Shown here piece by piece: positions 1 to 46,523 of a DNA stretch of 46,523 nt (positions are counted from its first letter, which is position 1; the number at the start of each line of letters is the position of its first letter). The DNA is taken from the IMG/VR virus record IMGVR_UViG_3300048913_000213; one strand, given 5' to 3'. The position numbers and the translations under genes are program-made. The notes under the pieces were generated by a model, which was not told where the DNA came from, made no database searches, and worked only from the letters and a program-made list of their open reading frames with translations. This stretch comes from a virus.

Positions 1-127
1 TCCGCTGCGCCCTCGTCCTCCAATTACCGCGCCACATTACAGCGGAGTAATATGGCCCCGAAATTCTGAGCCGCGAATCTCTTATAGCTTTTTCGCTACT
101 GAACTGGCCGCAAGCGACAGGCGACCA
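1..127. repeat. Terminal direct repeat, left copy, identical to 46397..46523
   Basis: Read directly: the 127 nt tccgctgcgccctcgtcctcc...gacaggcgacca occur at both window ends. This fits either a circular-assembly overlap or terminal redundancy. Confidence 0.95.
31..56. repeat. Palindromic intergenic repeat (PIR) copy 1
   Basis: GCCACATTAC-agcgga-GTAATATGGC, with one arm mismatch. Outer flank is CCCGAAATT. Intergenic, upstream of the late operon. Confidence 0.9.
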
Positions 128-212
128 CGAGCCCGGCTGTCGAGTTGCTGTTATTTGCAGTCACCTCGACTCTCCAGTCATCGCCTAACGCCTCCCCCAT
201 CGGAGAAAAGCT

Positions 213-572
213 ATGTCCAGCAAACAGACCATCGATAAAGTCAGCCACATACATGAGTGCATCATCAATGAGATGCTGCTCAACCCGGCTGTGACTCAAC
301 AAGACCTCTCCATGATGTTCGGGTACAGTGTGAGCTGGATGTCCCGCCTCATTAATAGCGATTCGTTCCAGGCACGGCTTGCCGAGCGTCGCCGGGAGCT
401 GATCGACCCTGTACTCAAAGTGCGGTTGGAAGATCGGCTGAAAAGCGCGGTGATGCAAAGCACGGAGCAGATCCAGCGCCGACTTGATGCCGGGGATAAT
501 GCGGACTTGGCGCTGCAGTCGCTCGGCGTGCTGACGGATGCACTGGGTGCACTGAACCCTCCGAAGAAGTGA
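213..572 (+). CDS. Small HTH DNA-binding protein, small-terminase-like paralog 1
   Basis: 119-aa ORF with a GGAGAAAAGCT-ATG initiation region. The HTH-like segment TQQDLSMMFGYSVSWMSRLINS is paralogous to the next ORF. Lies just upstream of TerL. Confidence 0.55.
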   Translation: MSSKQTIDKVSHIHECIINEMLLNPAVTQQDLSMMFGYSVSWMSRLINSDSFQARLAERRRELIDPVLKVRLEDRLKSAVMQSTEQIQRRLDAGDNADLALQSLGVLTDALGALNPPKK

Positions 573-1225
573 GAGCCGGAATGCCAAAAGCTAAAGCCAC
601 CCGCGATCCGCTTGCCGAAGCCGCGCAGTCCCTTGTGGATACTGCCATCGGCGCGGAAGCGGATTCCGACCTCACCGCACTGCTTGACGGTAGCAGCAAG
701 GCTGCGGGCAGGGAGTTTGTCCGCAAGCCACAGTACACTGCTGATGCGATGGTGGAGCTGTTTATCGAGCATCCAAACTGGACGCATGCTCAGTTCGCAG
801 ATCATTTCGGCTATCGCGCGAGCTGGTTCGCCGGGGTGCTGATCAGCAACAATCTCCAGGCTGCTCTCGACAAGCGACGCGAGGAAGTGCGCGCCGTCGC
901 CCCGCACCTCGCTGGTACGATGACGGAGATGTTCCAAGCCGCAACAGTGCAGGCACTGGCCGCACTGCAAGTCCGCATGGACGACCCGAAGGCGACGAAC
1001 GAACTGTTCCTGGAAGTGGCGAAGATCAGCACCAAGGCGCTGGGACTTGGTGGGGCGGGGACTCCGCCGCAGCAAAAGGAACCCCCAAAAGGTATCCACG
1101 ACCTCGCCGCAGGCTTGCTGCAATCTCAGCCGAAGGTTGAGTCGCCAACCCCTGCGGTGGATCACACCATCGATGCTACGCTGCGGGAAGTGCCGGCGGC
1201 CTCTGGTGACGAAAGTGAAGTATGA
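569..1225 (+). CDS. Putative terminase small subunit (HTH paralog 2)
   Basis: 218-aa ORF starting at GTG 569, which overlaps the previous stop; an alternative ATG lies at 581. The segment THAQFADHFGYRASWFAGVLISN matches paralog 1. Its end forms an ATGA overlap with TerL. Confidence 0.5.
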   Translation: MRAGMPKAKATRDPLAEAAQSLVDTAIGAEADSDLTALLDGSSKAAGREFVRKPQYTADAMVELFIEHPNWTHAQFADHFGYRASWFAGVLISNNLQAALDKRREEVRAVAPHLAGTMTEMFQAATVQALAALQVRMDDPKATNELFLEVAKISTKALGLGGAGTPPQQKEPPKGIHDLAAGLLQSQPKVESPTPAVDHTIDATLREVPAASGDESEV

Positions 1226-2697
1226 GCCTTACTCCAGAAGCTAAAGTTCAACTCACTCCAGAACTGATTGAGGCCTTCTCACGGAAGTACCTCATGCGTC
1301 AGTTCGACGAGGCGAAGCCGATTCCCAATTTCCACCGGGAGTGCTGGGCCCTTTATTGCAGCCCGTCGCTGAACTGCGGTGTTGCGGCTCCTCGCGGCCA
1401 TGCCAAGAGTACTTCCCTCACGACTGTGTACATGCTGGCGGAAATGCTCTTCCGGGTGGAGGAGTACGCGATCCTCGTAAGTTCAAATGAGGAAATGGCA
1501 GTTGAGCTGCTCGGTGACATCAGCCGGGAACTGACCGACAACGAAGACCTGATCAATGACTTCCAGATCGACAAGCTCTTGTCCCAAGCCAAGACCGACA
1601 TCATCGTGCGCTTTAAAGACGGCCACCAGTTCCGAATCATTGCTCGTGGCAGTGGTCAAAAGATGCGAGGCCGAAAGTGGCGAGGCAAGCGTCCCGGCCT
1701 GATCGTGTGCGATGACTTGGAAGATGACGAGCAGGTCGAAAACATCGACCGCCGGAAGAAGTTCCGTCGCTGGTTCAATCGCGCACTGCTGCCGTCGATG
1801 CGAGTCAAAGGTCGAGTCCGAATCCACGGCACGATTCTGCATGAGGACGCGCTGCTTGCCCGGATCATGAAGAACAAAGAGTGGGACACTCGGTTTTACA
1901 AAGCGCACACGAGCTTCAACGACTTCAGTGACATCCTGTGGCCGGAACAGCACGACGAGAAGTCCCTCCGAGCCAAGCGCGCAAAGTACATCGCTGATGG
2001 TGATCCGGGAGGCTACAGTCAAGAGTTCCTGAACGACCCATTCGACAGCGAAGAGACGTACCTCAAGAAGGAGCACTTCCTGGAAATGGAAGATGCCGAC
2101 CACAAAGCTCAAAAGCGATTCGCTGTGGGGGTGGACTTTGCAGTATCCCGGAAGGACAAAGCGAATCGCACCTCCCTGACTGTCGGCGGCCAAGACTGGA
2201 GCAACAAAATCCACGTTGTGGACGAGCGAGTCGGGCGCTGGGACACTCTCGAAATCATCGACGAGATGTTCAGTGTTCAAGCCGCATGGGACCCGGAACT
2301 GTTCTTTGTCGAAGACGGCGTGATCTGGAAGTCCATCGAGCCTATGCTCTACAAGGAGATGCAGGAGCGCGGTATCTTGCTGAATGTCTTCCCGATCCTC
2401 TCAATCAAGGACAAAAAGGTCAACGGCCGCAGTCTCCAAAAACGGATGAAGGCCCGCATGATGAGGTTCGACAAACAAGCCAGTTGGTACGAAGAGTACG
2501 AAGCCGAATTGCTGCGATTCACTGGCGACAGTGATGCGATAGCGGATGACCAGTTCGATTCGACCGGCATCCTCTGCCGAGGGTTCGACGGACTCGCTCT
2601 GCTGAGTGAAGAAGACTTCCTGGAAGAGGAAGAGCTTTACGCCAGAGGCCACGGCCCGGCTCGCAACAGCTCCCGCTCTCCCGTAACTGGCTACTGA
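1222..2697 (+). CDS. terL: Terminase large subunit
   Basis: 491 aa. Walker A-like AAPRGHAKST, Walker B-like GLIVCDDLEDDE, and a C-terminal nuclease-like half. Canonical position before the portal gene. Confidence 0.9.
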   Translation: MSLTPEAKVQLTPELIEAFSRKYLMRQFDEAKPIPNFHRECWALYCSPSLNCGVAAPRGHAKSTSLTTVYMLAEMLFRVEEYAILVSSNEEMAVELLGDISRELTDNEDLINDFQIDKLLSQAKTDIIVRFKDGHQFRIIARGSGQKMRGRKWRGKRPGLIVCDDLEDDEQVENIDRRKKFRRWFNRALLPSMRVKGRVRIHGTILHEDALLARIMKNKEWDTRFYKAHTSFNDFSDILWPEQHDEKSLRAKRAKYIADGDPGGYSQEFLNDPFDSEETYLKKEHFLEMEDADHKAQKRFAVGVDFAVSRKDKANRTSLTVGGQDWSNKIHVVDERVGRWDTLEIIDEMFSVQAAWDPELFFVEDGVIWKSIEPMLYKEMQERGILLNVFPILSIKDKKVNGRSLQKRMKARMMRFDKQASWYEEYEAELLRFTGDSDAIADDQFDSTGILCRGFDGLALLSEEDFLEEEELYARGHGPARNSSRSPVTGY

Positions 2698-2713
2698 CAA
2701 CCAAGGAAAAGCT

Positions 2714-4920: not shown

Positions 4921-5160
4921 ATGGCAGAGGGCATGTTGAAGGAGGAGCTGCGGGAATGGAAGCAACATCCTGTTACGCAGCACTTCTTGTCGCTAATCCA
5001 GCAGTCTCGTCAAGAGACGATGGAAGCATGGGCGAACAAGGCATATGTCGGCGAGACGGCGGAAGCTACTCTCGCGGCGAACACGGCAGCACTAGGCGGT
5101 ATGCAAGTGCTGGATCAAGTTATTGAACTGATTGATTCGATGGGGAGTGAAGAAGCATGA
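4921..5160 (+). CDS. Hypothetical head-module protein (79 aa)
   Basis: ORF with an AGGAGAAAAAGCT-ATG leader. Its end forms an ATGA overlap with the next gene. Confidence 0.6.
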   Translation: MAEGMLKEELREWKQHPVTQHFLSLIQQSRQETMEAWANKAYVGETAEATLAANTAALGGMQVLDQVIELIDSMGSEEA

Positions 5161-5558
5161 ATGCAGATGCTAAAGCAGTAGCAGGATACGATCCACGGCA
5201 AGCCGTGAAAGGCGAACGTGGCTGGCGCGCGGCCAAAGGTCCACAAGCCAATAACACTTCCGGCTTCCGGGCCACCGGCCATCGCTTGCTGCTGCTGAGC
5301 GATGCTGTTGAGGAAGTCACTTCTGGCGGCATTGTCTTGGCCAAGAAAACCATCGACAAAGAACGCTCCGCGAATGTCTATGCGACTGTGGTTGAAATCG
5401 GCCATGACGCCTGGAGCGACAAATCAACAGACTTCTGCGAAGTCGGTGATCGCGTCCTCATTGGCCAGTACACCGGCAAGTTCCAAGTCTCCGAACGTGA
5501 CGGTAAAGAGTACCGCTTCGTGACGGATCTGGATATTATCAGCACCGTCGAAAAGTAA
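5157..5558 (+). CDS. GroES/Cpn10-like co-chaperonin with an N-terminal extension
   Basis: The C-terminal ~95 aa align by eye to GroES: HRLLLLSDAVEEVTSGGIVLAKKT...ATVVEIGHD...VGDRVLIGQYTG...DGKEYRFVTDLDIISTVE, compared with RVIVKR..SAGGIVL...GEVLAVGNG..VKVGDIVIF...ILAIVE. Confidence 0.75.
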   Translation: MNADAKAVAGYDPRQAVKGERGWRAAKGPQANNTSGFRATGHRLLLLSDAVEEVTSGGIVLAKKTIDKERSANVYATVVEIGHDAWSDKSTDFCEVGDRVLIGQYTGKFQVSERDGKEYRFVTDLDIISTVEK

Positions 5559-5568: not shown

Positions 5569-5594
5569 GCCACATTACGGCTGAGTAATGTGAC
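5569..5594. repeat. PIR copy 2
   Basis: GCCACATTAC-ggctga-GTAATGTGAC followed by TCCATAAT. Starts 10 nt after the GroES-like stop and ends 32 nt before the scaffold ATG. Confidence 0.9.
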
Positions 5595-5626: not shown

Positions 5627-6550
5627 ATGCCCCCAGTAAATCAAGATGACGGTTCGCAATTGTCGGATCAAGAAGAGTATGATCTGGAACAGGCCGAGCT
5701 GATCGCAGCCGCAGGCGGCAAGGCTGCTGGCAGTGACGATGGCAGCGGCAAAGGCGCTGGCGCCGGCGCGGAAACCCCAGAGCAAAAAGCACTGGCCGCT
5801 GCCGAAGCCGAGGCCGTACGCAAAGGCTGGAAACCGAAAGATGCTTACGAAGGCGACCCCGATAAATGGGTTGACGCTAAGACCTTCCTGGATCGCGGTG
5901 ACAAGTTCAACAAGAACCTCCAACGAGAAGTCGCGGCCCTGAAAGCGAAACTCGAATCCTTCGAGGGCACCAAGCAAGCCTTCGTGAAGTTCCACGAAGA
6001 AACCGTGGCCGCAAAGGACAAGGAACTCGCTGCCGCCCTCAAACAGCTCCGGGTGCAACGCTCCGAGGCTCAAGCTGAAGGTGATCATGAAGCCGCTGTG
6101 GAAATCGAAGACCGCATCGAGGTCATCACGAAGGAACGGCAAGGGCTCAAGGACGCCGCTCCAGTTCCTGCTGCCGCACCGCAAGTCGACCCTGTGCTGG
6201 AAGCCTGGATCGGTGACGGCAACGACTGGTTTGCGAAAGACGCCAAGCTCCGCAACTACGCCATCACTCTGGCAGACGAACTCCGTGCGGACGGCGAAAC
6301 CCTGCAAGGTCGCCAGTTCCTGGACAAAGTCGCGGAACTCATGCGCGCCGAATTCCCTTCGAAGTTCGACAATCCGAACCGCCAACGTCCAGGTGCTGTC
6401 GAAGGCTCCAGCCGCTCCGCTGTCTCTGCTCCGCAAGGCCGTACCGAACGTGACCTTCCAAAAGTCGACCGCGAGCTGATGAACGAATTCGTCCGCAATG
6501 GCTGGACTACGAAGGAAAAGTTCCTCGCGGAATATCGCTGGCCGAAGTAA
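5627..6550 (+). CDS. Putative scaffolding protein
   Basis: 307 aa, acidic, Ala/Glu/Lys-rich and helical or coiled-coil in composition. Lies between the portal and capsid genes. Strong RBS AAAGGAGC. Confidence 0.6.
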   Translation: MPPVNQDDGSQLSDQEEYDLEQAELIAAAGGKAAGSDDGSGKGAGAGAETPEQKALAAAEAEAVRKGWKPKDAYEGDPDKWVDAKTFLDRGDKFNKNLQREVAALKAKLESFEGTKQAFVKFHEETVAAKDKELAAALKQLRVQRSEAQAEGDHEAAVEIEDRIEVITKERQGLKDAAPVPAAAPQVDPVLEAWIGDGNDWFAKDAKLRNYAITLADELRADGETLQGRQFLDKVAELMRAEFPSKFDNPNRQRPGAVEGSSRSAVSAPQGRTERDLPKVDRELMNEFVRNGWTTKEKFLAEYRWPK

Positions 6551-8759: not shown

Positions 8760-8785
8760 GGCACATTACGGGCTAGTAATGTGCC
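8760..8785. repeat. PIR copy 3
   Basis: GGCACATTAC-gggcta-GTAATGTGCC, a perfect 10-bp palindrome, flanked by GATTATGGC and GCTAAAACC. Ends 33 nt before the next ATG. Confidence 0.9.
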
Positions 8786-12997: not shown

Positions 12998-13954
12998 ATG
13001 AGCCTATTGAGCAGTATTGGCAGCGTTGCTGGTGGCCTGATCGGAGGCCCAGCCGGTTCGGCGATCGGCGGTTTGCTGGGTTCTGCCCTTGGCGGAGATG
13101 GCAAAGGCTCGACCGGTAGCGGAGCTTCGCCTGCAGCGGTAGCCGATCCCTTTGCTTCGCAACGCCCGCAGTACCAAACCCAGCTGAACGACTTCATGAA
13201 GACGGCTTCGGGGAGCAGTGCGGCGCTGCAACAGCAACAACAAATCGCACAGTACAGCGGCCTTGATCCGAATGCTTCGAACACGATGCGCGGCATCATG
13301 AACCTTGGCGGTACGGACGCCGGGAATCAGCTCGCCGCTATGACCGCGCCGGGAGCGAAGTTCGACTCCAGCGACCCGAGCTACCAATTCCGCTTCGACC
13401 AGGGCCAGCAAGCCGTGCAACGAAGCGGTGCGGCAAAAGGCCTGCAGGGCAGTGGGAATATCCTGATGGCTCTGCAGGACTACGGGCAAGGCGCGGCTTC
13501 ACAAGAGTACCAAGCCCAATTCAACCGTCTGTCGTCGCTGGCGCAGTATCAGCAGGGCTACCAAGCCCAGCAATACAACCAAGCTCTGCAGTTCAACAAC
13601 CAGAACCTCAGCGCTCTGGGACAGCAGTTCAACCAGCAAGGTCAAATCTACGGTCAGCAGGAAAACAGCTACCAGAACGAGTACGCTCGGCTGGCACAGC
13701 TCGCTGGTGCGAACATCGGTTCTCCGGGCCAAGCGGGTCAGCTGCAACAGCAACAGCAAGCGGGAGCGGCTGCATTTGCGCAATCCGTCACCCCGGCGAT
13801 TTCGGATCAGATCAAGAGCTGGTTCGGACCGTCGAGCGGTAGTGGCAGCAGCGGCAGCGGCTCCAACCCGTTCATCCCTTCGTCGATTACTCCGGTTGAC
13901 AGCAGCTACAACAGCGGCTTCAGCTTCACGCCGGAAGTCTTCACGAGTAGCTGA
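12998..13954 (+). CDS. Internal virion or ejection protein candidate with a glycine zipper and a Q/N-rich region
   Basis: Start moved to ATG 12998 to avoid overlapping the hub gene. N-terminus is SIGSVAGGLIGGPAGSAIGGLLGSALGG. It is followed by long Q/N/Y-rich low complexity and an SGSGSSGSGS tract. Confidence 0.45.
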   Translation: MSLLSSIGSVAGGLIGGPAGSAIGGLLGSALGGDGKGSTGSGASPAAVADPFASQRPQYQTQLNDFMKTASGSSAALQQQQQIAQYSGLDPNASNTMRGIMNLGGTDAGNQLAAMTAPGAKFDSSDPSYQFRFDQGQQAVQRSGAAKGLQGSGNILMALQDYGQGAASQEYQAQFNRLSSLAQYQQGYQAQQYNQALQFNNQNLSALGQQFNQQGQIYGQQENSYQNEYARLAQLAGANIGSPGQAGQLQQQQQAGAAAFAQSVTPAISDQIKSWFGPSSGSGSSGSGSNPFIPSSITPVDSSYNSGFSFTPEVFTSS

Positions 13955-13961: not shown

Positions 13962-13987
13962 GCCACATTACGGCTGTGTAATGTGGC
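13962..13987. repeat. PIR copy 4
   Basis: GCCACATTAC-ggctgt-GTAATGTGGC, perfect, flanked by GATTTCGGG and TCTAAAACC. Ends 30 nt before the ATG at 14018. Confidence 0.9.
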
Positions 13988-14017: not shown

Positions 14018-15418
14018 ATGGACCTGAACGCCGCTTTCCAAACCTTCGCGGCGGCCCAAGTGGCCGGCCAGCAGATTAATGCCGACTTGCAGTCCAAGCG
14101 GGAGGAGAGCGACCTCCGGCAGCAACAACTGCAAGCGGCGAAATTCCAACTGTCGTCGCAAATGCAGCAGCAAGAGCAGCAACAGCGCTTCCAGCAAGAA
14201 TCGCAAAAGCTCATTGCGGAGCATGATTCGGCACTGAAACAGCAACAAGTCAACTCCGGCACGGCGCCGGATGATGCTGCTGAGGCTCAGCTCACTTCCA
14301 GTATCGACATGTACCAGAAGCAAGCCTCTGCGGCGATTCGCTCGGGGCTGCCTTCGACTGCTGAGCAGTACCAAAAGCTTGCCGATGCCGCGCAGAGCAA
14401 ACTCTCGACCATCCGCAAGGACAACTTCGCTATCGCAGAGAAGAAGGTCAAATCCACGGCGGCATTCGCTGGATCGGTGCTGGATGGCAGTGTGGATGCG
14501 CAGCAAGCGTTTGCCTGGGTCAAGGATAATGTCGGGCTCAAAGAGGCCTTGGCGATTCCGACAGACCCGGCGAAAGCTAAGCTCTACTGGCAGGCAGCGC
14601 AGAAGCAAGGAGTGAGCGCAGAGACTCAAATCCAGAACCAAATCCATGTGGCCGAGGTCGCGGAGCGGGAGAAGCGCCTCGCCCAAGATCACGCTGACAC
14701 GCAGGAAGACCGTCGGATTCGTCGTGCAGAACTCGCCGCGAGTCGTGAAGCAAACCTGGAGATGCGCAAAGCTAACCTCGAGCTGCGGCAAAAGCAGTAC
14801 GAAGAGGGCGGCGCGATCCAACGTCGCCAGACAATTGCTGCCACAAACTACGCAAACGAAACCGCTCGAGGCCTGAACCTCGTTTCCAGTCTCGGTGCGA
14901 ATCAAACTGTCGGTGTGTTCGCCCACATGCAGAATCCTGACACGATCCTCAAGTCCCTCGAGAGCACTGGTACGAACAAGCTCACAGGTGAAATGGAGCA
15001 AATTTACCAGACCGCGACGAAGGGCTTAGGGCTGGAACTCGCTCAGCTCGCAACTGCAGGCAGCGGTCGCGCTCCGGTCAAGGATCTGATCAACGAAATG
15101 GGCACCATGGTCGAGGCTCGGAAGGGCGATACGGAGCTGGAAATCATGTTCAAACTCGCTAATGCAGCGGACTTTGCAAAGGTCCGGCTCGAAGCCGTTC
15201 CTGATAGCCCCGACCCGAAGATCCAGGCTATTCGCAAAAAGGCGGAAGAGGAGCTGTCGAAGTTCCCGCATCCGTCTCAAGTGGTTGCGCTGGCCATGAA
15301 AAAGGGCGCGAAGCTCCAAGGCAAAGCCCGGATCGAGTCGCTGCGGGAAAAGCTCGACCGCTCCACGGCCTCGGAAGCCCCAAGCGACATCGCCGACCTT
15401 CTCAACAAGTACAAATAA
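14018..15418 (+). CDS. Internal virion or ejection protein candidate (coiled coil)
   Basis: 466 aa, Q/A/E/K-rich and helical. Its position corresponds to P22 gp7/20/16 or the T7 gp14-16 block. Confidence 0.45.
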   Translation: MDLNAAFQTFAAAQVAGQQINADLQSKREESDLRQQQLQAAKFQLSSQMQQQEQQQRFQQESQKLIAEHDSALKQQQVNSGTAPDDAAEAQLTSSIDMYQKQASAAIRSGLPSTAEQYQKLADAAQSKLSTIRKDNFAIAEKKVKSTAAFAGSVLDGSVDAQQAFAWVKDNVGLKEALAIPTDPAKAKLYWQAAQKQGVSAETQIQNQIHVAEVAEREKRLAQDHADTQEDRRIRRAELAASREANLEMRKANLELRQKQYEEGGAIQRRQTIAATNYANETARGLNLVSSLGANQTVGVFAHMQNPDTILKSLESTGTNKLTGEMEQIYQTATKGLGLELAQLATAGSGRAPVKDLINEMGTMVEARKGDTELEIMFKLANAADFAKVRLEAVPDSPDPKIQAIRKKAEEELSKFPHPSQVVALAMKKGAKLQGKARIESLREKLDRSTASEAPSDIADLLNKYK

Positions 15419-17356: not shown

Positions 17357-17363
17357 TTATGGA

Positions 17364-17389
17364 GTCACGTTACTAGAAAGTAATGTGGC
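17364..17389. repeat. PIR copy 5 (flipped variant)
   Basis: GTCACGTTAC-tagaaa-GTAATGTGGC with left flank TTATGGA. This is the reverse orientation of the GTGAC-TCCATAA variant. Confidence 0.8.
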
Positions 17390-17413
17390 CCACTAACTCG
17401 CCGTCATTACCAT

Positions 17414-17439
17414 GCCACATTACGGCGCGGTAATGTGAC
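17414..17439. repeat. PIR copy 6
   Basis: GCCACATTAC-ggcgcg-GTAATGTGAC followed by TCCATAATGG. Confidence 0.9.
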
Positions 17440-17946: not shown

Positions 17947-17972
17947 GCCACATTACACCGGCGTAATGTGGC
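17947..17972. repeat. PIR copy 7
   Basis: GCCACATTAC-accggc-GTAATGTGGC, perfect, flanked by ATTTTCGG and CCCATAAC. Ends 27 nt before the ATG at 18000. Confidence 0.9.
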
Positions 17973-17999
17973 CCCATAACTACTACGGAGTACTTCAGT

Positions 18000-29809: not shown

Positions 29810-29988
29810 GCAGGCACCTTGCACTTCCCCCGGCACACCGGGCATACACGGCTGTTGCCGACTCGCAGTCCACGGCCCACGAACACGGTGCCAGTGCCGT
29901 AGCAGTTTTTGCACCGCACCAGAGCAACCGGTGCGGTGCCTTCCGCAAGCGCTTCATCGCGCTTTTCTATAGCTTGTTTGATTGTCAT
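29806..29988 (-). CDS. Small DnaJ-type zinc-finger-like protein (60 aa)
   Basis: CKNCYGTG...CPVCRGKC, i.e. two CxxCxGxG-like knuckles. Translationally coupled to the polymerase. Confidence 0.55.
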   Translation of the reverse strand: MTIKQAIEKRDEALAEGTAPVALVRCKNCYGTGTVFVGRGLRVGNSRVCPVCRGKCKVPA

Positions 29989-29992: not shown

Positions 29993-31375
29993 TTACCCCA
30001 TCAGACCTTTGAGTTCATCCGCCAGAGCTTGGCCACTCGTTACGTCCTGCGGGCGGTTGAGTTCCTGCAGACGCTTGTACCCCATCGCGTAATACTCGGG
30101 GTTGAGTTCCAGGCCGATGCCCTTGCACTTTTGCTGATCCGCCGCTGGGAAGATCGTGCCACTACCGCTGAAGCAGTCCAGCACCGTGTCGCCGGGCTTG
30201 ACGCTGCGCTGCAAGAGTTGCACGAACAGCTCAACAGGCTTCTGAGCCCCGTGCGTGAGGTTGTCGTCGGCGTAGCTGGTCAGAACGTCCGGGTAGATGG
30301 CGGTGGTTTTCTTGTGCCCTTTGATTGCGTACAGCAGAGTTTCGTACTGGCGGCGTGGGCCTTCGAATGGCAGAGGCACACGACCGCTTCCAGGTTTTGT
30401 GCAAATGAAAGGCGTTCTGAACACATACCAGCCCGCGTCCTGCATCATGCGCTTCAGCTCGTGGAAGTTGTCGATGTCGCAAAAGACATACGCATGAGCT
30501 TCGCGCTTCGCCACCCGGAACGACAACGGGCACCACGCTGTCATCAGTTCTTTCCAATGGGCATAGTCGTCTTTGTAATGGTGTTCATTGTTGGCCAGAC
30601 GACCGCCGCCACCGTCACCGAAGCTATCAGCACCCATACCGTAAGGAGGATCAGTAAGAATAACATCGACGCTCTCTTCAGGCGCCGTTGCCATCCACTG
30701 GAGACAGTTGATATGATGCGCTTCGTGGATGCTGCTGGAGTACGTGGCGCCGACGGTGGCAGCGAGGCGAATGTTCTGCTGTTGCGTCTCTTGCTTTTTG
30801 AGGATTTTGAATGCTTCGTTGACATCTTTGGCCTTTGCGACTTCAGGGTTGTGGGTGTGCTGCGCGACGATGATCTGGCGGCGGATGATTTCTTGATTGG
30901 AGCCCTCGCTCGATCCACGAACCTCCACAGCCGTGTCGGCGACAGCATGGACGCGGCCTTCGGCTTGGGCTTGCTGCGACCGGATGCGGTGGAGTTTGGC
31001 GATTGCAGCGGCCTCGTCCTGCCAATTGAGGGCTTTGCGGCGGATGTTTTCTTCGAGCTCCGCTTCTTCCGCTTGCAGCGGGGTGAGGTCGCCGAGGCTG
31101 ACGAACGGGAGGTAGCCTTCAGGAATGGCTTGGTTGTTATAGCGGAGGGTGCCACCGAGCGCCCACAAGTTTTCGATGGCTTTGATACGGGTTTCCCCCG
31201 CGACGAGGATCTTGCGCACAGGCTCACCCGGTGCATCACGCATCACCGGAGCGTGCAGCAAGCCCTTGCTGAGAATGCCTTCGGACATTTCCTGAATGAA
31301 GGCCGGATCGAATTCCTTGCGCTGCCTGTCGGATTCGATGATGATGTCAGAACGTTTAATGAGTTGGGGTTGCAC
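29993..31375 (-). CDS. ParB-like N-terminal domain fused to an N6-adenine/N4-cytosine DNA methyltransferase (beta class)
   Basis: 460 aa from a GTG start. ParB-like N-terminus (IIIESDRQRKEFDPAFIQEMSEGI..GLLHAPVM), catalytic ILTDPPYG, and a C-terminal SAM motif VLDCFSGSGT. Confidence 0.85.
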   Translation of the reverse strand: MQPQLIKRSDIIIESDRQRKEFDPAFIQEMSEGILSKGLLHAPVMRDAPGEPVRKILVAGETRIKAIENLWALGGTLRYNNQAIPEGYLPFVSLGDLTPLQAEEAELEENIRRKALNWQDEAAAIAKLHRIRSQQAQAEGRVHAVADTAVEVRGSSEGSNQEIIRRQIIVAQHTHNPEVAKAKDVNEAFKILKKQETQQQNIRLAATVGATYSSSIHEAHHINCLQWMATAPEESVDVILTDPPYGMGADSFGDGGGGRLANNEHHYKDDYAHWKELMTAWCPLSFRVAKREAHAYVFCDIDNFHELKRMMQDAGWYVFRTPFICTKPGSGRVPLPFEGPRRQYETLLYAIKGHKKTTAIYPDVLTSYADDNLTHGAQKPVELFVQLLQRSVKPGDTVLDCFSGSGTIFPAADQQKCKGIGLELNPEYYAMGYKRLQELNRPQDVTSGQALADELKGLMG

Positions 31376-33167: not shown

Positions 33168-33193
33168 GCCACATTACGGCGGAGTAATGTGGC
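33168..33193. repeat. PIR copy 11
   Basis: GCCACATTAC-ggcgga-GTAATGTGGC, perfect. Lies 4 nt downstream of the ATPase stop (33198 on the minus strand). Confidence 0.9.
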
Positions 33194-36024: not shown

Positions 36025-36240
36025 TTACATCAGCCCGTCAAGCAGCGCATCGCTGTCAATCGGAGCTGCTTTGGCTTTCGCCGTTGCTGCTTTGGTTTTC
36101 GCGGTCGCACTCACAGTCGAAGCGTTCACGCGCTCCTTGCGGATCGCGGCGATGGCCTCTCGCATTTCTTCTTGAGTGATAGTGCCATCGCGCGCTTTCT
36201 GGCGCCAGAGTTGCAGGTTGTTGTTGATCACGTCGGACAT
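36025..36240 (-). CDS. Small helical protein ending in the shared IDSDALLDGL motif
   Basis: 71 aa with a GGAGG RBS. The C-terminus AKAKAAPIDSDALLDGLM matches the C-terminal regions of 40792..41409 and 44800..45465. Confidence 0.55.
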   Translation of the reverse strand: MSDVINNNLQLWRQKARDGTITQEEMREAIAAIRKERVNASTVSATAKTKAATAKAKAAPIDSDALLDGLM

Positions 36241-36589: not shown

Positions 36590-36940
36590 TTAATCGCTCA
36601 CGATCTGGCCGTCAACCAGCTTCGGCGCCGATTTCGGGCCTTTCAGGAATTCCAGCGCTTCTTTACGCGCCGTGTCGCCGCTGCGATCGACAACCTGCAT
36701 CAGCCATTTGTACTCGAACTTCGCGTGAGGGTCGACGCGCTCAGGACCGTTCACGCTCACAACGCGAACCACGGCCAGGCCTTTCGGGGATTCGACCACG
36801 ACTTCGTCGAGGGGCTTCAGGTCCATGCCTTCCGGGACTTTGTAGGTGTAGTCCCGGTCAGGCGTGGCGAGGAAGGCGCATTGCGCCGTGCGGGTGAAGG
36901 TGAGGACTTCGGCGGCTTGTTGCGCGGAGGTGATGGGCAT
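36590..36940 (-). CDS. Hypothetical protein (116 aa)
   Basis: The strong leader AAAGGAGCTTTCC-ATG is nearly identical to the scaffold gene leader. A PIR copy lies 40 nt upstream. Confidence 0.55.
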   Translation of the reverse strand: MPITSAQQAAEVLTFTRTAQCAFLATPDRDYTYKVPEGMDLKPLDEVVVESPKGLAVVRVVSVNGPERVDPHAKFEYKWLMQVVDRSGDTARKEALEFLKGPKSAPKLVDGQIVSD

Positions 36941-36980: not shown

Positions 36981-37006
36981 GCCACATTACCGGCTAGTAA
37001 TGTGTC
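36981..37006. repeat. PIR copy 12
   Basis: GCCACATTAC-cggcta-GTAATGTGTC with left flank GGTTAATGG. Confidence 0.85.
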
Positions 37007-37050
37007 CATGTAATGACTATGCCATCTAGCCTAGCAGATGTCACGTACCG

Positions 37051-38439: not shown

Positions 38440-38791
38440 TGCTAATTTCCTTTTTAGGTTGACTGTCTGTCAGGGCTGCGCCCTGGATCAAGAAAGCTTG
38501 CGCTTTCAATTCTTTTTGTTGCGAAGAGCTGATAGCGCTCTCCTTTACTTCAATCCGGCTTTTCAGCCGCTCCACCAGCAAGTCCAAATACCACTTGGCC
38601 TTGCCGGCATCCTGCACCGGGTCGTCCTTCTTCCCTAGGAGCCAGTTGTACCTGATCACCTGCCCCCGGAGGAAAGCGATGAAGCCTTCCGGGCCGAGGG
38701 CAGATTCGATAGCGTCGATGCATTCGACACTGCCACTGGTGTAGTGGCTGGGGTTGTGCACGGGGTCGTGGTCACGCAGAGATGAGGTCAT
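38297..38791 (-). CDS. DUF3310-family protein with an unusually long C-terminal extension
   Basis: NPSHYTSGSVECIDAIESAL...RYNWLLGKK...DAGKAKWYL is the DUF3310 signature. The ORF runs 143 nt into the helicase gene in another frame. Confidence 0.55.
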   Translation of the reverse strand: MTSSLRDHDPVHNPSHYTSGSVECIDAIESALGPEGFIAFLRGQVIRYNWLLGKKDDPVQDAGKAKWYLDLLVERLKSRIEVKESAISSSQQKELKAQAFLIQGAALTDSQPKKEISNGTVINGKTYGTPEWLELHFSDRSRFRSENYPGWHFVGGLLGQRPPA

Positions 38792-39005
38792 GCAAGCCTC
38801 CGGTCAGAATTGCTGCTTTCTGTGCAGCTGCATCCACCCGCAGATAGTGTTCCGTCAGCAACCTATCCACCAACTCCGCTTGCGCCCCCAGTGGGACCCG
38901 GCCTTCCAGTTCACTGTAGAGCTCCAGCTCCATGCGGGCCACATTCTCCACGCTCAGCGAGAAGTGCTTCTTAACCTTTGGGTTGTTGCTTTTTGGCCTT
39001 GCCAT
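38772..39005 (-). CDS. Hypothetical protein, possibly a ribbon-helix-helix DNA binder
   Basis: 77 aa. The N-terminal KVKKHFSLSVENVARMELELY has an RHH-like strand-helix pattern. This is a weak call. Confidence 0.35.
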   Translation of the reverse strand: MARPKSNNPKVKKHFSLSVENVARMELELYSELEGRVPLGAQAELVDRLLTEHYLRVDAAAQKAAILTGGLHDLISA

Positions 39006-40656: not shown

Positions 40657-40682
40657 GCCACATTACTCGGCGGTAATGTGGC
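40657..40682. repeat. PIR copy 13
   Basis: GCCACATTAC-tcggcg-GTAATGTGGC, perfect, flanked by CATTTTGGA and CCTATAAC. Confidence 0.9.
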
Positions 40683-40698: not shown

Positions 40699-40735
40699 CA
40701 ACAAAAAGCCCCAAGGACTTCTAACCCTTGGGGCT
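40699..40735 (-). terminator. Rho-independent terminator
   Basis: On the minus strand: AGCCCCAAGG-gttagaagt-CCTTGGGGCT (10-bp stem) followed by TTTTTGTT. It lies 56 nt downstream of the stop at 40792. Confidence 0.8.
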
Positions 40736-40791
40736 TCCGGTAGCTGCAGAGGCTCAATTCTCAGCTACTGCGCGGTTCCCGCGCCCGGCCG

Positions 40792-41409
40792 TTAGGCCAC
40801 TTCGGTGGCTGCGCCATCTTGGTTTTCGACTTCCGCAGGTGCGCCGTCCAGACCTGCCAGCAGCGCGTCGGTATCGACTGCCGGGCCTTTCGCACGGGCG
40901 GCTTTTTCGGCTTCCAGACGGTCGATGATCGGTTTCAGCTTGGCGTTGCCACGCAGTGCGGTCTTCTCGGCATGGGACTTGCCGGCCAGGAACGACTTGA
41001 TTTCGTCTTTCGACTTGCCCGACAGTTCCATCAGCGCCTTCATCAGCACACTGGCGCCGGACAGGCCGCCAGCTTCGCGCTTAATGTTCCACTCGCCTTT
41101 TTCCAGGCGGTCCAGCAGTTCATCGATAGCGATGATCGCGTCTTCGACGTCCTTGACGCCGGCGATCTCGTCGCCCAGCTTTTGCTCGGCGCCGTGGGCA
41201 GCGAAGCGCAGGATCAGGGCTTGCGGAATGTTCAGGTAGCGGGTTTCACCGTTCACGAAGTCCAGACGGGTAACGACAGTGCCGGCTGCGGCGTCGATGG
41301 TCGAGTGCTTCAGCAGTTTGGCTTTGCCGGTGAATTCCACGATGCGGCCGTCGTCCATGGTGACGGTGTTGATTACGGGGCCAGCTTTGGTGGTGGTTGC
41401 TTCGGTCAT
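40792..41409 (-). CDS. Early protein, paralog B of 44800..45465, carrying the shared VDTDALL.GL motif
   Basis: Start set at ATG 41409 (MTEATTTK, GGAG upstream). FAAHGAEQKLGD, GGLSGASVLMKAL...SKDEIKSFL...EKTALRGN and AVDTDALLAGL all align with paralog A. Confidence 0.6.
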   Translation of the reverse strand: MTEATTTKAGPVINTVTMDDGRIVEFTGKAKLLKHSTIDAAAGTVVTRLDFVNGETRYLNIPQALILRFAAHGAEQKLGDEIAGVKDVEDAIIAIDELLDRLEKGEWNIKREAGGLSGASVLMKALMELSGKSKDEIKSFLAGKSHAEKTALRGNAKLKPIIDRLEAEKAARAKGPAVDTDALLAGLDGAPAEVENQDGAATEVA

Positions 41410-42387: not shown

Positions 42388-42749
42388 TCAGCGCGAAGCA
42401 TATTATGTAGATCAGACTGCAGCCATATCCAGCCGGATTCGAATCCGCTGTGAGGGACTTGAAAATATCTCAGCAAGTTCAAATTTTCTGCTAGAGCGTG
42501 TTCTATATCTGCTCCATTACTGTCTTCCCACCCTCGGAGCATCACCACAGCATCCGCATCCGCGATCTGCTTCACACTCAACCGCATATAGTACTGCCAC
42601 GGGTTCGGATGCCCTTTCGGTGGCGGCGGATTCTCCGCAGGATTCAGCACCGTATGCCCTGCCGCACGGAGAGCAGCTGCAGCTGCGTGGAAGGCGGGAT
42701 AGTTAGAGTCCGGGAGGCCGGACATTGGACCTGCGATGTAGATGATCAT
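42363..42749 (-). CDS. DUF4406 / nucleoside 2-deoxyribosyltransferase-like protein
   Basis: MIIYIAGPMSGLPDSNYPAFHAAAAALRAAGHTVLNPAE...ADAVVMLRGWEDSNGADIEH is the typical DUF4406 pattern (IYIAGPM.G....N...F......L...G..V.NP...W..S.GA..E). Confidence 0.65.
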   Translation of the reverse strand: MIIYIAGPMSGLPDSNYPAFHAAAAALRAAGHTVLNPAENPPPPKGHPNPWQYYMRLSVKQIADADAVVMLRGWEDSNGADIEHALAENLNLLRYFQVPHSGFESGWIWLQSDLHNMLRAECPKPWLR

Positions 42750-43396
42750 GGCTTGGCCCTCACTGGCGTGGCATCGGCTAATGGCTGCGCCTGTGCTGGC
42801 GATGGGGTATTAAGGCTTTCAAGGAAGGCATTGGCTTCATCGAGGGAATGAATGCTCCACTTCTTCGCTTCTTCGCGGGCTTCCTTATGCGCAGCGTCGA
42901 AATTGTGGTCATTCCATACAAATGCGAGCCAGAGCAGGCGGTACGCCATTGCCTTGACGCCTTCCGACACCTCCGCATCCTTGCTTGCTTGGGAGGCGAG
43001 AGCGGCGCGGAGTTCAGCGATTTCGGCATCCCGCGCTCGAATTTCTGGAACTGCGGTGCTTGCAAAAAGCCTCATGCGTTGACGCCACGTTTTGATGTTG
43101 GTCATATCACTCAGCTCCTCTTGCGCATGCTGCTGTGTGGCGGATGCGGGCTCCCCGTAGCTTTCGGCCACGAAAGCCAAAGCCGCCAGCACCGCATCGC
43201 GGGCCAAGTCGGCTTCATACGAAGACTGGGCAAAGGTAACAATACGGACATTGCCATCGGTCAGAATAGCTGAACCAAAATCCCTTTCAGGTCCTAGGAC
43301 AGTCTTCCCGAATGTAGCGGTGGCGGCAAGTGCTTTGGCTTTCGCAAGTGAAAGTTCCCACTCGGAAGGAGTTGGATCGGGGATTGCGGTAGACAT
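42746..43396 (-). CDS. Hypothetical protein (216 aa)
   Basis: ORF with a GGAGG RBS. It is the first gene downstream of island C and PIR copy 14. Confidence 0.5.
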   Translation of the reverse strand: MSTAIPDPTPSEWELSLAKAKALAATATFGKTVLGPERDFGSAILTDGNVRIVTFAQSSYEADLARDAVLAALAFVAESYGEPASATQQHAQEELSDMTNIKTWRQRMRLFASTAVPEIRARDAEIAELRAALASQASKDAEVSEGVKAMAYRLLWLAFVWNDHNFDAAHKEAREEAKKWSIHSLDEANAFLESLNTPSPAQAQPLADATPVRAKP

Positions 43397-44007
43397 TGAG
43401 CCTCCAGAAGGTTAATCGTTAATAGTTATAGCGCCATATTACCACGCCGTAATGTGGCCCTCAAACCGGCCACGCTCACCCCCACACTACCCCCTCACCC
43501 GCCAGCAGTCACTCTCTCCCACCCACAACTTCGAGGGCGCGGCCACACCTCACCACGCCGCAGCCCTCGCGTGTGCGCGCACAGGCGCTCGGGCGCCCCA
43601 CCCGCATACGCGCTGTTTTTAAAAACAGCCCCCTCCGGCTAGCGATTTCGGGATTGAACCGCTCTGACTCGCCACTAAGACTAACAGCAATTGAGCGACG
43701 GTCTGCGGCGCGTTAGCCCCTCCCCGGGCCGGATTTCCCCTCACGGCGCGGCAAAAGCTATGGCGCGGAGAGCGAACTGCTAACGGGCGCGAGGATGGGC
43801 CAGGGGTGCGAATGAAGAGGGTTTCGGCGGCACGAAATAGAGGCCCGTGGCGGCGTTTGGGGCATTGGCTGGTGGGGTAGTAGCCGCCGGGGAGGGATCG
43901 CGGCGTGGCGGTGCCATTCCGGCCCGTGGTGGGGCATTACCGATGTGGAGGCACGCCCCCAAACAACGAAACCCCCGGACAGGGGGGTTATCGGGCCACG
44001 TTACAGG
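43397..44007. other. GC-rich non-coding island C
   Basis: 611 bp with no credible ORF. PIR copy 14 lies at the left and a truncated half-PIR (43986..44004) at the right. The left part is C-rich and the right part G-rich. Contains an 18-bp AT palindrome at 43612..43629. Confidence 0.7.
43433..43458. repeat. PIR copy 14
   Basis: GCCATATTAC-cacgcc-GTAATGTGGC with left flank AGTTATAGC. Lies 36 nt upstream of the minus-strand ATG at 43396. Confidence 0.9.
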
Positions 44008-44530: not shown

Positions 44531-44534
44531 GGCG

Positions 44535-44714
44535 CTAGACTCCCAAGAGGATGTAACGGGTCGCTTCGAGGGACCACCCGCGATTGCGGAGGTATGCGGC
44601 GGCGGGGCGGGTTCCGAGGGTGCGCTGGATGTTGCGGGCACGCTCGATTGGGGTGCGGCCCTGTGTGAGCAGGGCATTGCGATGCGGGGCGGGGGATGAG
44701 GTGAGGTGTGACAT
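44535..44714 (-). CDS. Small HTH-like protein (59 aa), absent from the ORF track
   Basis: Hand translation gives MSHLTSSPAPHRNALLTQGRTPIERARNIQRTLGTRPAAAYLRNRGWSLEATRYILLGV. GGAGG lies upstream and PIR copy 15 lies 30 nt upstream. Confidence 0.45.
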   Translation of the reverse strand: MSHLTSSPAPHRNALLTQGRTPIERARNIQRTLGTRPAAAYLRNRGWSLEATRYILLGV

Positions 44715-44744: not shown

Positions 44745-44770
44745 GCCACATTACCGGCTAGTAATGTGGC
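44745..44770. repeat. PIR copy 15
   Basis: GCCACATTAC-cggcta-GTAATGTGGC, perfect. Confidence 0.9.
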
Positions 44771-44799: not shown

Positions 44800-45465
44800 T
44801 TAGACGTTGCGACCTGCACCGCGACGGTCTTTGCCGGTGCGAGCTTCACGCTCGGCGTCGGTTTCGTCGGAGTCGCTATCGCTATCGCCGTCCTCGCCCT
44901 CTTCCTCGTCCGTGTCACCATTGTGACCTTCCATCAGCCCATCGAGCAACGCATCGGTATCGACCTTCGACGTGTCGGTGTTTTCGGCTTGGATCAACCG
45001 GATCATTTCCACCACTCGAGGGTTCTTGCGGAGCGCGGCCACTTCTTCTTTCGACAGCTTGTCGAGGTAGGCCGTGATTTCGTCTTTGCTCTTCGTCGTG
45101 ATGCGCATCATGGCGCGGACGAGCAGACCACCCTTCGCGTTACCGCTCTCGCCATTGCCCCGGATCTTGTTCCATGCCGGGGTTTCACCGTTCGCCCCGG
45201 TGATGCGGTCGAAGATTTCGCGCACGGCGTTGAACTTGTCCACGATGGTGGCGGTGCGGCCGGTTTCTGGATCGCGGGCAATAGCCGCACCATCGACTAG
45301 CTTTTGTTTCAGGCCATGCATCGCGGCGGCGTGGTAGATTTCCTGCGAGAGCGTGGCGCTGTCGAGGGTGAGGGATTCGCCGTTGCTGAATGCGAGCGTG
45401 AGGCGAGTGCCGTCGATTGCGGCTGCTACGGCGGTCGAGGTTTTCTTTGGGGTTGCGGTTGCCAT
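44800..45465 (-). CDS. Early protein, paralog A of 40792..41409, with the VDTDALLDGL motif and an acidic tail
   Basis: Start set at ATG 45465 (MATATPKK, GGAG upstream). AAMHGLKQKLVD, GGLLVRAMMRITTKSKDEITAYL..EEVAALRKN and KVDTDALLDGL are followed by a D/E/S-rich tail. Confidence 0.6.
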   Translation of the reverse strand: MATATPKKTSTAVAAAIDGTRLTLAFSNGESLTLDSATLSQEIYHAAAMHGLKQKLVDGAAIARDPETGRTATIVDKFNAVREIFDRITGANGETPAWNKIRGNGESGNAKGGLLVRAMMRITTKSKDEITAYLDKLSKEEVAALRKNPRVVEMIRLIQAENTDTSKVDTDALLDGLMEGHNGDTDEEEGEDGDSDSDSDETDAEREARTGKDRRGAGRNV

Positions 45466-45731: not shown

Positions 45732-45781
45732 ATTCGTTGCTCCTCGTCGGTTGCGGCGCTGTGTTGTGAGCCGATGTAGTA

Positions 45782-45810
45782 ACTATACGTTATGGGGCCA
45801 CGGAATGCAA
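45782..45810 (-). promoter_or_regulatory. Sigma70-type early promoter (leftward)
   Basis: Minus strand reads TTGCAT-17 nt-TATAGT. The spacer contains a PIR half-site (GTTATGGGGCCAC on the plus strand, 45789..45801). Confidence 0.45.
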
Positions 45811-45901
45811 GCCCTCTTCGCAAATTATTTGTGTGGTATTTTCGCCACTGGATTTAGTAGTCGCAAAAGCTATAAGAGTAACGCGCTCCTCCGATTACCG
45901 G

Positions 45902-45927
45902 GCCACATTACTAGCCCGTAATGTGCC
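45902..45927. repeat. PIR copy 16
   Basis: GCCACATTAC-tagccc-GTAATGTGCC followed by GCCATAAC. Confidence 0.9.
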
Positions 45928-46396
45928 GCCATAACTCCCCGCCGCGCCCCGCCGACCACATGCACCGCGACGAGGGCAGAGGGCGTGAGCGGGTGTGGTG
46001 AGAGGGGAGCGGGGCATGGGGGTGCATTGCCGCCCTCTATCAGCAGTAACGCGCACGCCCACACCCGCGCACACGTAGCAATCGCCGTGCCTGCCCGCCC
46101 CTCCCAGCACGCTACCCTCCCGCCTCCGAGCCGCTCGCCCGTTACTGTATCGTGTGCGACCCTCTCGCAGCCGTCTCTCTCGCGTGGCATGGTGTCGTGT
46201 GCGGGCCTGTCGAGCCCGATGCGGGCGGCTGCGATGTGAGCGGGGGCGATTGCTTCCCGTGCGATGGGAGGGGGTAGCGGGCTGCGAGGGGGGTGGGGGA
46301 GGGGGAAACTGGAGTGTGGGATATTTGTGTAATGCACCGTCCAACATTTTTTTTAATTTTTTCCAGACCCTTGCCTCTCGGCAACACACTCACTCG
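45928..46396. other. GC-rich non-coding island D (continues across the circular junction to about nt 212)
   Basis: No credible ORF. Lies between the divergent early and late arms and is bracketed by PIR copies 16 and 1 within ~75-bp composite inverted repeats. Contains a G-tract cluster at 46266..46305 and a T8AAT6 tract at 46347..46362. Confidence 0.7.
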
Positions 46397-46523
46397 TCCG
46401 CTGCGCCCTCGTCCTCCAATTACCGCGCCACATTACAGCGGAGTAATATGGCCCCGAAATTCTGAGCCGCGAATCTCTTATAGCTTTTTCGCTACTGAAC
46501 TGGCCGCAAGCGACAGGCGACCA
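46397..46523. repeat. Terminal direct repeat, right copy, identical to 1..127 and including a duplicate of PIR copy 1 at 46427..46452
   Basis: Read directly; identical to the first 127 nt. Confidence 0.95.

Follow-up and report, generated by a model that had tools for sequence, protein, structure and literature searches.

The viral genome analysed here, IMG/VR record IMGVR_UViG_3300048913_000213 (46,523 nt, hereafter the window), carries a palindromic element, GCCACATTAC-N6-GTAATGTGGC, at 16 unique sites, all situated between genes, and the same architecture recurs in many related contigs with arms that differ from genome to genome. The anatomy of the element, its conservation pattern and its genomic contexts are direct observations. 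With somewhat less than even confidence we favour the interpretation that a symmetric phage protein binds the elements as operator-like sites in duplex DNA, effects at the level of RNA hairpins being secondary.

Occurrence of the element in the window

A scan with the pattern above, allowing up to three mismatches, gave exactly 17 starts, 16 of them unique, and recovered every position that the initial annotation had listed by eye (31, 5569, 8760, 13962, 17364, 17414, 17947, 21819, 26685, 26930, 33168, 36981, 40657, 43433, 44745, 45902 and 46427), while 100 dinucleotide-preserving shuffles contained no match. The window begins and ends with the same 127 bases (1–127 and 46397–46523), an exact terminal direct repeat which is either a true terminal redundancy or an assembly overlap, and since both sites lie within it, the copy at 46427 is a duplicate of the one at 31. 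The copies are spaced 1–6 kb apart across both arms of the genome and there are no orphan half-sites, each CACATTAC and each GTAATGTG in the window belonging to a full element. When genes were called with a codon model trained on long open reading frames (ORFs), all 16 unique copies fell in intergenic gaps, as had been proposed; these gaps sum to at most about 11.6% of the window sequence and the placement is therefore far beyond chance. Contrary to the further suggestion that the copies fill most of the short gaps, about 16 of the gaps exceeding 25 nt have none.

The spacer measures 6 nt in every copy. Its sequence is variable, in agreement with the initial annotation, but not random, 8 of the 16 spacers beginning with GGC or GGG in sense orientation. 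The dyad does continue outwards, as a half-site consensus of RTTWYnnG plus the arm, and at site 31 the flanking dyad covers about 8–12 nt on each side of the 10-6-10 core. No T-tract follows 3' of any copy in the window. The variant GTGAC-TCCATAA was found again at 5569, 17414 and 26930 and in flipped orientation at 17364, with GTGAC present also at 21819. Other sub-variants are common to non-orthologous copies: those at 5569 and 21819 share the spacer ggctga and an A25 variant, the copy at 8760 matches the reverse complement of that at 45902, and the spacer cggcta occurs at both 36981 and 44745.

Architecture and conservation in related contigs

An exact-pattern scan with the 16 core bases gave related IMG/VR contigs at 65–75% nucleotide identity, and further relatives were collected by protein seeds (portal 34, PolA 9, helicase 6, PurD-like protein 189, AAA_24 315). 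Many of these relatives contain the same architecture, RTTWYnnG, an arm of 5–6 nt, ATTA-N8-TAAT, the complementary arm and CnnRWAAY, the whole element being about 42–50 bp across the family; it is thus not private to the window genome. The inner boxes usually read ATTAC-N6-GTAAT, which is the form found in the window, and are positioned 11 bp apart centre to centre, equal to one helical turn. When analysing 2.96 Mb of family sequence, palindromic ATTA...TAAT was found 291 times with a spacer of 8 and at most 11 times with any other spacer between 4 and 12.

The arms are uniform inside a genome and different between genomes, and have been re-coded at least a dozen times in the family, the types including GCCACA (the window), GCCGCG, CGCRCR, CKCACA, CGCGGA, GGCGKR, CCGGGA, CCCGYA, TAGGAA, CACGGA and TKAGGA. 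The initial annotation described the arms as conserved rather than co-varying, which is correct within the window genome but not among related genomes, where the co-variation is strong. When 92 sense-oriented copies are aligned without gaps, 77.9% of the cells pair compared to 64.2% after shuffling, the arm covariation score is 0.38 against 0.17 for shuffled data, a value reached by none of 500 shuffles, and the three innermost pairs are invariant. Profiles of the left and right half-sites are nearly identical in sense orientation, both flank-type orientations occur, and any polarity of flanks or loop with transcription is weak and inconsistent.

The positions of the elements are conserved as well, across relatives with about 50% protein divergence. 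Among 25 relatives with a capsid protein identity to the window of 74% or more, about 24 have an element in the gap that follows the major capsid gene, and the gap after the orthologue of 5157–5558 is likewise occupied across relatives. As the same junctions are occupied despite the different arms, the sites are old and orthologous rather than recent insertions.

One relative, IMGVR_UViG_3300045240_000141 (loci L012, L014, L017–L020, L023, L049, L119 and L200), differs in that 10 of its 12 elements pair one CTCAC half with one CGCAC half, so that complementarity is systematically lost at position 2/25. In the window, too, this position is the mismatch hot spot.

Sequence tests for a function as DNA or RNA

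Comparison of near-identical orthologous copies showed 0.31 differences per site in the centre against 0.016–0.020 in the arms and 0.01–0.06 in the flanks, the centre thus evolving about 10 times faster than the arms. Between near-identical relatives the spacers are swapped wholesale or exactly inverted (tgtaga versus tctaca) with identical arms and flanks, and copy-to-copy conversion seems to occur among the elements. This combination, a stem that is conserved and a loop that varies in sequence but not in length, characterises a duplex operator and not an RNA hairpin recognised by a protein.

To this can be added the behaviour of the two halves. When the right halves were shuffled within each genome the number of Watson-Crick pairs was unchanged (639 observed, 638.8 +/- 6.4 after shuffling, p = 0.5), so each half follows the consensus of its genome on its own and there is no compensation within single hairpins. 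Many copies bear one or two arm mismatches, which in sense orientation are divided into 27 G.U, 39 A.C and 44 others, and wobble pairs are accordingly not favoured. Compensatory or wobble changes within each copy, as expected of a structured RNA, were thus not seen, apart from a trend at the post-capsid site. The element instead has the properties of operators for dimeric repressors of the 434, Arc and LexA type, namely inverted half-sites at a fixed spacing, a non-conserved centre and independent halves.

Hairpins predicted for the window copies as RNA have energies of -10 to -30 kcal/mol with z-scores from -1.6 to -7.2, and the stable GC-rich hairpin of an intrinsic terminator is consequently present. 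The 3' U-tract is not: a T-run, defined as at least 5 T in the 6-nt downstream window, follows 6 of 97 family copies and is lacking in the other 91. A search of the whole window against Rfam gave no match at E ≤ 1 and a tRNA scan was also empty. In line with the initial annotation, which did not recognise the consensus from any described phage system, no description of it was found in the literature searched.

Promoter, terminator and gene end contexts

In the late arm (plus strand) the core at 31–56 belongs to the terminal repeat, with 156 nt separating it from the first late gene downstream, and has its duplicate at 46427–46452 in the right-hand repeat. A T8/T6 tract lies just to the left of that repeat, at 46347–46366, and comparable poly-T tracts adjoin the terminal element in the relatives L014, L037, L038 and L041. 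The copy at 5569–5594 occupies the junction between 5157–5558 and 5627–6550, filled in nearly all relatives, and the copy at 8760–8785, a compensated GGCAC/GTGCC variant forming the second strongest hairpin (-24.7 kcal/mol), follows 26 nt after the major capsid gene. Further copies are found between 12998–13954 and 14018–15418 (13962–13987), 7 nt past the stop of 15431–17356 (17364–17389, with two G.U pairs in the plus sense) and shortly thereafter at 17414–17439, the second of the pair, which faces a promoter on the minus strand at 17844–17816. The copy at 17947–17972 is located 27 nt upstream of 18000–19319, the one between 21093–21797 and 21875–22159 (21819–21844) gives a weak hairpin (-10.3 kcal/mol), and the strongest hairpin of all (-30.4 kcal/mol) is formed by the copy at 26685–26710, 28 nt after the last late gene (holin, 26246–26656).

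The early arm, on the minus strand, starts with the copy at 45902–45927, continues with copies between 44800–45465 and 44535–44714 (44745–44770) and 36 nt upstream of 42746–43396, at the end of a 611-nt gap (43433–43458), and ends with the copy at 26930–26955, 8 nt past the stop of its last gene (HNH endonuclease, 26964–27413). Three copies in between stand next to transcription signals. At the first of these, 40657–40682, the order is gene stop, canonical terminator (40703–40738, minus strand; a hairpin of -22.2 kcal/mol plus UUUUU, immediately upstream of the element), element and, 76 nt further on, a promoter with a TATAAT -10 box (40580–40575, minus strand), an arrangement which recurs in many lineages. 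The copy at 36981–37006 lies directly downstream of a σ70-type promoter-like site, GTGACA-17-CATAGT (37016–37044, minus strand), the -10 box of which ends 9 nt before the core; the site is conserved in four related lineages (L153, L155, L156 and L157), and relatives without an element at this junction have perfect TTGACA-17-TATAAT promoters there. At 33168–33193 the order is stop, element, promoter, the element being located 4 nt past the stop of the AAA_24 gene and followed 38 nt on by the promoter-like sequence TTGACC-17-CACTAT (33129–33101, minus strand). In the relatives L070 and L071 the palindrome is even placed within TTGACR-17-[GT]ATAAT promoters, the right inner box serving as the -10 box. 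Contexts in which the element is embedded in a promoter, abuts one or stands between a terminator and a promoter are awkward for a role as RNA and fit a role as DNA, and the terminator at 40703–40738 shows that the phage uses ordinary terminators where it terminates.

Scans of the window with σ70 and terminator consensus sequences gave no enrichment over shuffled sequence. The idea that the element is itself a promoter, suggested by ATTACA-17-AATAAT in some lineages, was rejected, as the -7-equivalent position prefers C in sense orientation and GTAAT has G at the -11-equivalent. A site for a late activator of the Ogr/Delta type, expected at -55, was likewise rejected, the start codon being merely 27–38 nt from the core.

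Gene ends form a second group of contexts. Each of the converging arms ends in its own copy, at the distances from the last stop codons given above. A T-run is found 3' of the post-capsid copy in the closest relative, L024, and in at least four other lineages. When relatives are compared, pairing is higher in the post-capsid copies than in the copies after 5157–5558 (15.3 against 14.1 of 20 pairs, paired Wilcoxon p = 0.011), and the ratio of G.U to A.C in sense orientation is 23:21 at the post-capsid site compared to 57:141 at four other junctions.

Proposed function as operator-like sites

From these patterns we infer binding by a protein, the kind of protein and the regulatory outcome. The binder would be a symmetric (dimeric or tetrameric), sequence-specific DNA-binding protein, most likely encoded by the phage, and its site would consist of the invariant inner ATTAC/GTAAT boxes one turn apart, the lineage-specific arms of 5–6 bp and the outer RTTWY boxes, with the 6-bp centre left without contacts. 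Once bound, the sites would delimit gene blocks on the two arms. A site overlapping or abutting a promoter may repress that promoter and a site inside an operon may act as a roadblock or insulator, while the transcribed palindrome would give an RNA hairpin as a side effect. This hairpin may have been strengthened by selection at places that profit from a 3' end (the post-capsid site and the ends of the arms, with a T-run in some relatives), and weakening mismatches would be tolerated or favoured at other sites. Being strong at such places and weak elsewhere, the hairpin would not be the reason why most copies exist. The initial annotation had suggested sites for a dimeric regulator forming a stoperator-like network; fixed boxes and spacing, free centre, independent halves, lack of wobble bias and promoter contexts all speak for a dimeric site, but the elements are not strict stoperators, because they are symmetric and without polarity.

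Several results weigh against this interpretation. Of the 382 -10-like hexamers that overlap an element, 16 have a good -35 hexamer at proper spacing, compared to 9 of 573 in the background, a modest difference, and the overlap with promoters therefore belongs to particular junctions and not to all copies. Most late-arm copies are squeezed into the short stretch from a stop codon to a ribosome-binding site, a place in which the role of a regulator is puzzling. Pairing is best in the post-capsid copies and in those that close the arms, and distant relatives have ordinary GC-hairpin-plus-T terminators in the post-capsid slot, the slot after the polymerase gene being alike, which indicates an RNA-level role at least there. 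Gene conversion between copies could moreover alone produce the uniformity within a genome, without any co-evolving protein. The search for a binding protein adds to these difficulties. Among the small early proteins no helix-turn-helix (HTH), ribbon-helix-helix (RHH) or other DNA-binding domain was detected above threshold by Pfam, PHROGs or PDB sequence searches. Single-sequence AlphaFold models of two candidates encoded beside elements were of no help, being uninformative for 36590–36940 (predicted local distance difference test, pLDDT, 48) and giving four helices for 44535–44714 (pLDDT 76) with no significant Foldseek match. For the product of 38772–39005 (minus strand) the RHH signals are sub-threshold, a Pfam RHH_1 match with E = 0.003 in 1 of 25 orthologues and a PDB profile match to an RHH antitoxin with E = 0.55, and the protein is also present in relatives without elements.

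The same protein is nevertheless the best lead for the binder, as a weakly supported candidate trans-acting factor. It is a small protein of 77 aa with a strand-helix-helix pattern resembling RHH proteins and conserved family-wide, consisting of RPK..., KNISLP, EDLVARMELELYSE, EGKIPxGAQ and a second helix, and its gene is located in the operon downstream of a terminator-element-promoter junction. The strand carries KH in three lineages with GCCxC arms, while otherwise the same KNI[SA]LP strand occurs together with several different arms. Given the sub-threshold signals, the lack of arm tracking and its presence in element-less relatives, it is put forward only as a candidate and not as a finding. 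When the presence and absence of proteins across relatives was compared, the top clusters were shadow ORFs inside the polymerase and AAA_24 genes, and 36590–36940 and a few small ORFs alone were restricted to close relatives.

Alternative explanations

The main alternative, which we consider possible but rather doubtful, is that the elements are RNA punctuation, hairpins of 10–20 bp functioning between cistrons as attenuators, stabilisers of 3' ends or sites of processing, through which the balance of gene products would be adjusted, with, for example, more mRNA for the capsid. All copies being intergenic, many of them 4–30 nt past a stop codon, agrees with this, and so does the post-capsid slot, nearly always occupied, with T-runs or terminators in some relatives and better paired copies; the slot after the polymerase gene behaves in the same way, and each converging arm end has its own copy. 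The predicted hairpins are strongest at 26685, 8760, 17947 and 26930. An invariant stem with a free loop is however the reverse of what is found in RNA hairpins recognised by proteins, compensation per element is lacking and A.C is overall as common as, or commoner than, G.U. The scarcity of T-runs, the empty Rfam search, the copy at 40657 placed between a strong terminator and the next promoter and the copies inside promoters are also difficult to reconcile with it. The initial annotation's suggestion of RNase III-type processing or stability hairpins accordingly seems to apply at some positions, the post-capsid site and the arm ends, and finds no support in per-copy compensation or wobble bias.

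It appears unlikely that the elements are self-homogenising palindromes or recombination sites, maintained by gene conversion, template switching or site-specific recombination at the 10-6-10 core and having little regulatory role or acting as crossover points for the exchange of modules between co-infecting relatives. The wholesale replacement and inversion of spacers and the sub-variants common to non-orthologous copies are what such a process would leave behind, homology breakpoints between relatives are about 1.7–1.9 times denser at gaps with an element than at the other gaps, although this estimate is noisy and not independent, the phage has a recombination module (AAA_24 and PD-(D/E)XK proteins), and the 10-6-10 geometry recalls the tyrosine-recombinase cores of Xer/pdif or lox, in which inverted arms flank a crossover region of 6–8 bp. 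To our knowledge, the arms themselves are unlike dif. No scanned protein was recognised as a recombinase, integrase or transposase, and no bacterial genome with multiple copies was found; furthermore the conserved positions imply that the element is not recently mobile, the family-wide invariance of ATTA-N8-TAAT needs a functional constraint, and the variable regions of the genomes are not bounded by elements. A variant to which we assign a very low probability is that of address sites, where the arms would recruit an unrecognised recombinase or strand-transfer protein and the junction-specific centre would pick the partner copies; co-infecting relatives could then swap gene blocks at the seams without deleting the genes between copies, giving an enzymatic basis for modular phage evolution. 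Hardly more probable is a role in DNA structure, as cruciforms or single-strand hairpins for replication priming, for site-specific nicking as in phages tf and T5, for packaging or for the management of supercoils. An AT-rich centre, GC-rich arms and AT-rich outer flanks favour cruciform extrusion, the spacing covers both arms, no primase was detected among the scanned window proteins, and the genome architecture is like that of the LUZ24/tf group. Phage tf has 14 nicks at TACTRTGMC on one strand (PMC3517423), and the TAATGTGAC variant agrees with 8 of the 9 positions of that motif. The tf sites, though, are asymmetric and restricted to one strand (PMC3517423), whereas the likeness of TAATGTGAC is lost in relatives with other arms and in the window concerns only some copies, on both strands. 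Extrusion does not need an exact ATTAC/GTAAT invariance either, and many copies are mismatched in the arms.

Comparison with known systems

The initial annotation also mentioned a dispersed element similar to repetitive extragenic palindromic (REP) sequences or miniature inverted-repeat transposable elements (MITE). Like the REP and bacterial interspersed mosaic elements (BIME) of enterobacteria, which are imperfect intergenic palindromes of 35–40 bp, often just past stop codons, and stabilise mRNA 3' ends with conserved mismatch positions, the element is palindromic and intergenic. REPs are chromosomal and spread by REP-associated tyrosine transposases (RAYT). Here no host copies and no transposase were found, and the positions are orthologous across relatives. 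A host REP origin was not supported by a search of 185,579 species genomes (596 Gb), which gave 96 scattered hits to the core pattern, none of them in a phage-related locus and nearly all of them single sites, one locus having two. The multiple chromosomal copies and Y1 transposase that define a REP/RAYT system were thus not seen, no transposase being found by Pfam or PHROGs, and a MITE, for which presence/absence polymorphism at orthologous sites and terminal repeats with target duplication would be expected, does not agree with the occupation of the same junctions in relatives with divergent arms or with an element of only about 45 bp. The copy-to-copy conversion is the part of that suggestion which found support. 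The RNase III sites of T7 are similar as about ten like hairpins punctuating polycistronic transcripts before, between and after gene blocks. They are found on one strand and have bipartite stems with internal loops, in contrast to the symmetric DNA palindromes without wobble bias described here.

Closest in kind to the element are the 17-bp dyad repeats of Cluster O mycobacteriophages, TGTTCGG-N3-CCGAACA, which occur in more than 30 copies and have no known function (PMC4351075). These are also dispersed invariant inverted repeats with a variable centre, found in both arms without transcription polarity and without an obvious link to most promoters, and are predicted to bind a dimeric protein (PMC4351075). 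About one third of the Cluster O sites are located in genes (PMC4351075), while the element of the window is strictly intergenic, and it is further distinguished by its length of about 45 bp, its four boxes, its lineage-specific arms and its occurrence in an unrelated, uncultured family. The stoperators of Cluster A (L5, Bxb1) are likewise short and conserved, number dozens and occupy small gaps between genes on both arms; their lineage-specific consensus co-evolves with the repressor, and they have been proposed to block elongation. Unlike the present sites, which are symmetric and without polarity, they are asymmetric, 13 bp long and aligned with the direction of transcription (PMC4351075). 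They belong to temperate phages whose immunity repressor is known, while here neither integrase nor repressor was found. The OB operators of KorB on plasmid RK2 offer another parallel, a repeated palindromic operator distributed over a replicon of 40–60 kb at varying distances from promoters and serving a global regulator able to act at a distance (PMC11790492). KorB is, however, a ParB-family CTPase clamp with a short palindromic core operator (PMC11790492) and the present element is longer; the sole ParB_N signal in the window is a weak hit in a methyltransferase fusion. Finally, the 21-nt repeats of the T1-like phage TLS have about 18 intergenic copies in a phage with few recognisable promoters, but are direct repeats oriented with transcription about 76 nt upstream of start codons and not palindromes (PMC11447400). 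The element differs from all these known systems in its length, its four boxes, its strict placement at intergenic block seams, its lack of polarity and its re-coded arms.

Dispersed conserved phage repeats recur (Cluster O, TLS/T1, nick sites), and few of them are open to comparative study as the present element is. Its invariant boxes and re-coded arms form a natural series for studying the recognition code between regulator and site, and it shows how transcription is organised in a lytic phage with two convergent arms and without an RNA polymerase of its own. If a phage protein binds, the family would hold a compact orthogonal set of operator/regulator pairs, and if the function lies in the RNA, the element would be a punctuation hairpin under sequence constraint, a type absent from Rfam. 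On either reading it is a sharp marker of this phage family in metagenomes.

Genome organisation and other features

The window looks like a complete phage genome with two convergent arms. The plus strand (213–26656) encodes structural and lysis proteins (large terminase subunit, portal, capsid, tail proteins, endolysin and holin) and the minus strand (45731–26964) the replication functions, PolA with a uracil-DNA glycosylase (UDG)-like domain, a methyltransferase, AAA_24, a PD-(D/E)XK nuclease, a superfamily 1 (SF1) helicase and an HNH endonuclease. Searches with Pfam and PHROGs found no RNA polymerase, sigma factor, integrase, recombinase or transposase among the scanned window proteins, and the phage RNA polymerase that goes with hairpin promoters of the N4 type was thus not seen. 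With its about 46 kb, convergent arms and short terminal repeat the genome resembles the LUZ24/PaP3/tf group (PMC3517423). A megablast of 20 kb against INPHARED gave no close relative among 50,697 deposited phages; the distant relatives at protein level include Manatee Spring metagenome phages and Microcystis phage Mel-JY34, one of which carries PaP3-type protein names, and the GenBank relatives MW202489, Microcystis phage Mel-JY34 and MW202796 are all without the element. The element-bearing family probably infects Gram-negative hosts.

Three elements bracket a gap of 643 nt, apparently non-coding, at 17357–17999. It contains the best σ70-like promoter of the genome, TTGACA-17-TACAAT (17844–17816, minus strand), and recurring CTTATAAG and CTTAAGAAG palindromes (17677, 17707, 17728, 17774 and 17897), and might serve as a regulatory hub, as an origin or as the locus of a small RNA. 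The gene following it, 18000–19319 (plus strand), encodes a PurD-like ATP-grasp protein (GARS_A, GARS_C) conserved in at least 189 IMG/VR contigs, for which a location in the middle of the structural arm is unusual.

The sequence CTCTTATAGCTTTT is found downstream of the first element of each arm, in arm sense, at 79–92 (plus strand, 22 nt) and at 45865–45878 (minus strand, 23 nt), and the related CTCTTCTATAAGAG repeats are present in L013; these motifs are possibly start signals of the late and early arms. At the start of the early arm 45732–46396, about 660 nt, is GC-rich and has no convincing ORF by codon statistics. Besides the terminator described above, canonical hairpin-plus-U terminators of the early arm are found at 43966–43989 and 43626–43641 (both minus strand), and these two lie in the 611-nt gap 43397–44007, which also has no convincing ORF. 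A second conserved intergenic motif, GGCCTCTATTTC, is located at 26770–26781 and 43834–43845 (both minus strand) and also downstream of the polymerase gene in L153, L157 and L213.

The largest ORF of the window is that of PolA (27419–29845, minus strand; 808 aa), the UDG-superfamily domain being N-terminal, and directly downstream of it lies the homing-type HNH endonuclease gene (26964–27413, minus strand; PHROG match with E = 2e-36), which is present there only in some relatives. The N6/N4 methyltransferase (29993–31375, minus strand) has a weak ParB_N-like N-terminus. The genes 40792–41409 and 44800–45465 (both minus strand) are paralogues, conserved family-wide and each followed by an element, and their proteins, together with that of 36025–36240 (minus strand), all end in D[TS]DALL[DA]GL, which looks like a shared docking peptide.

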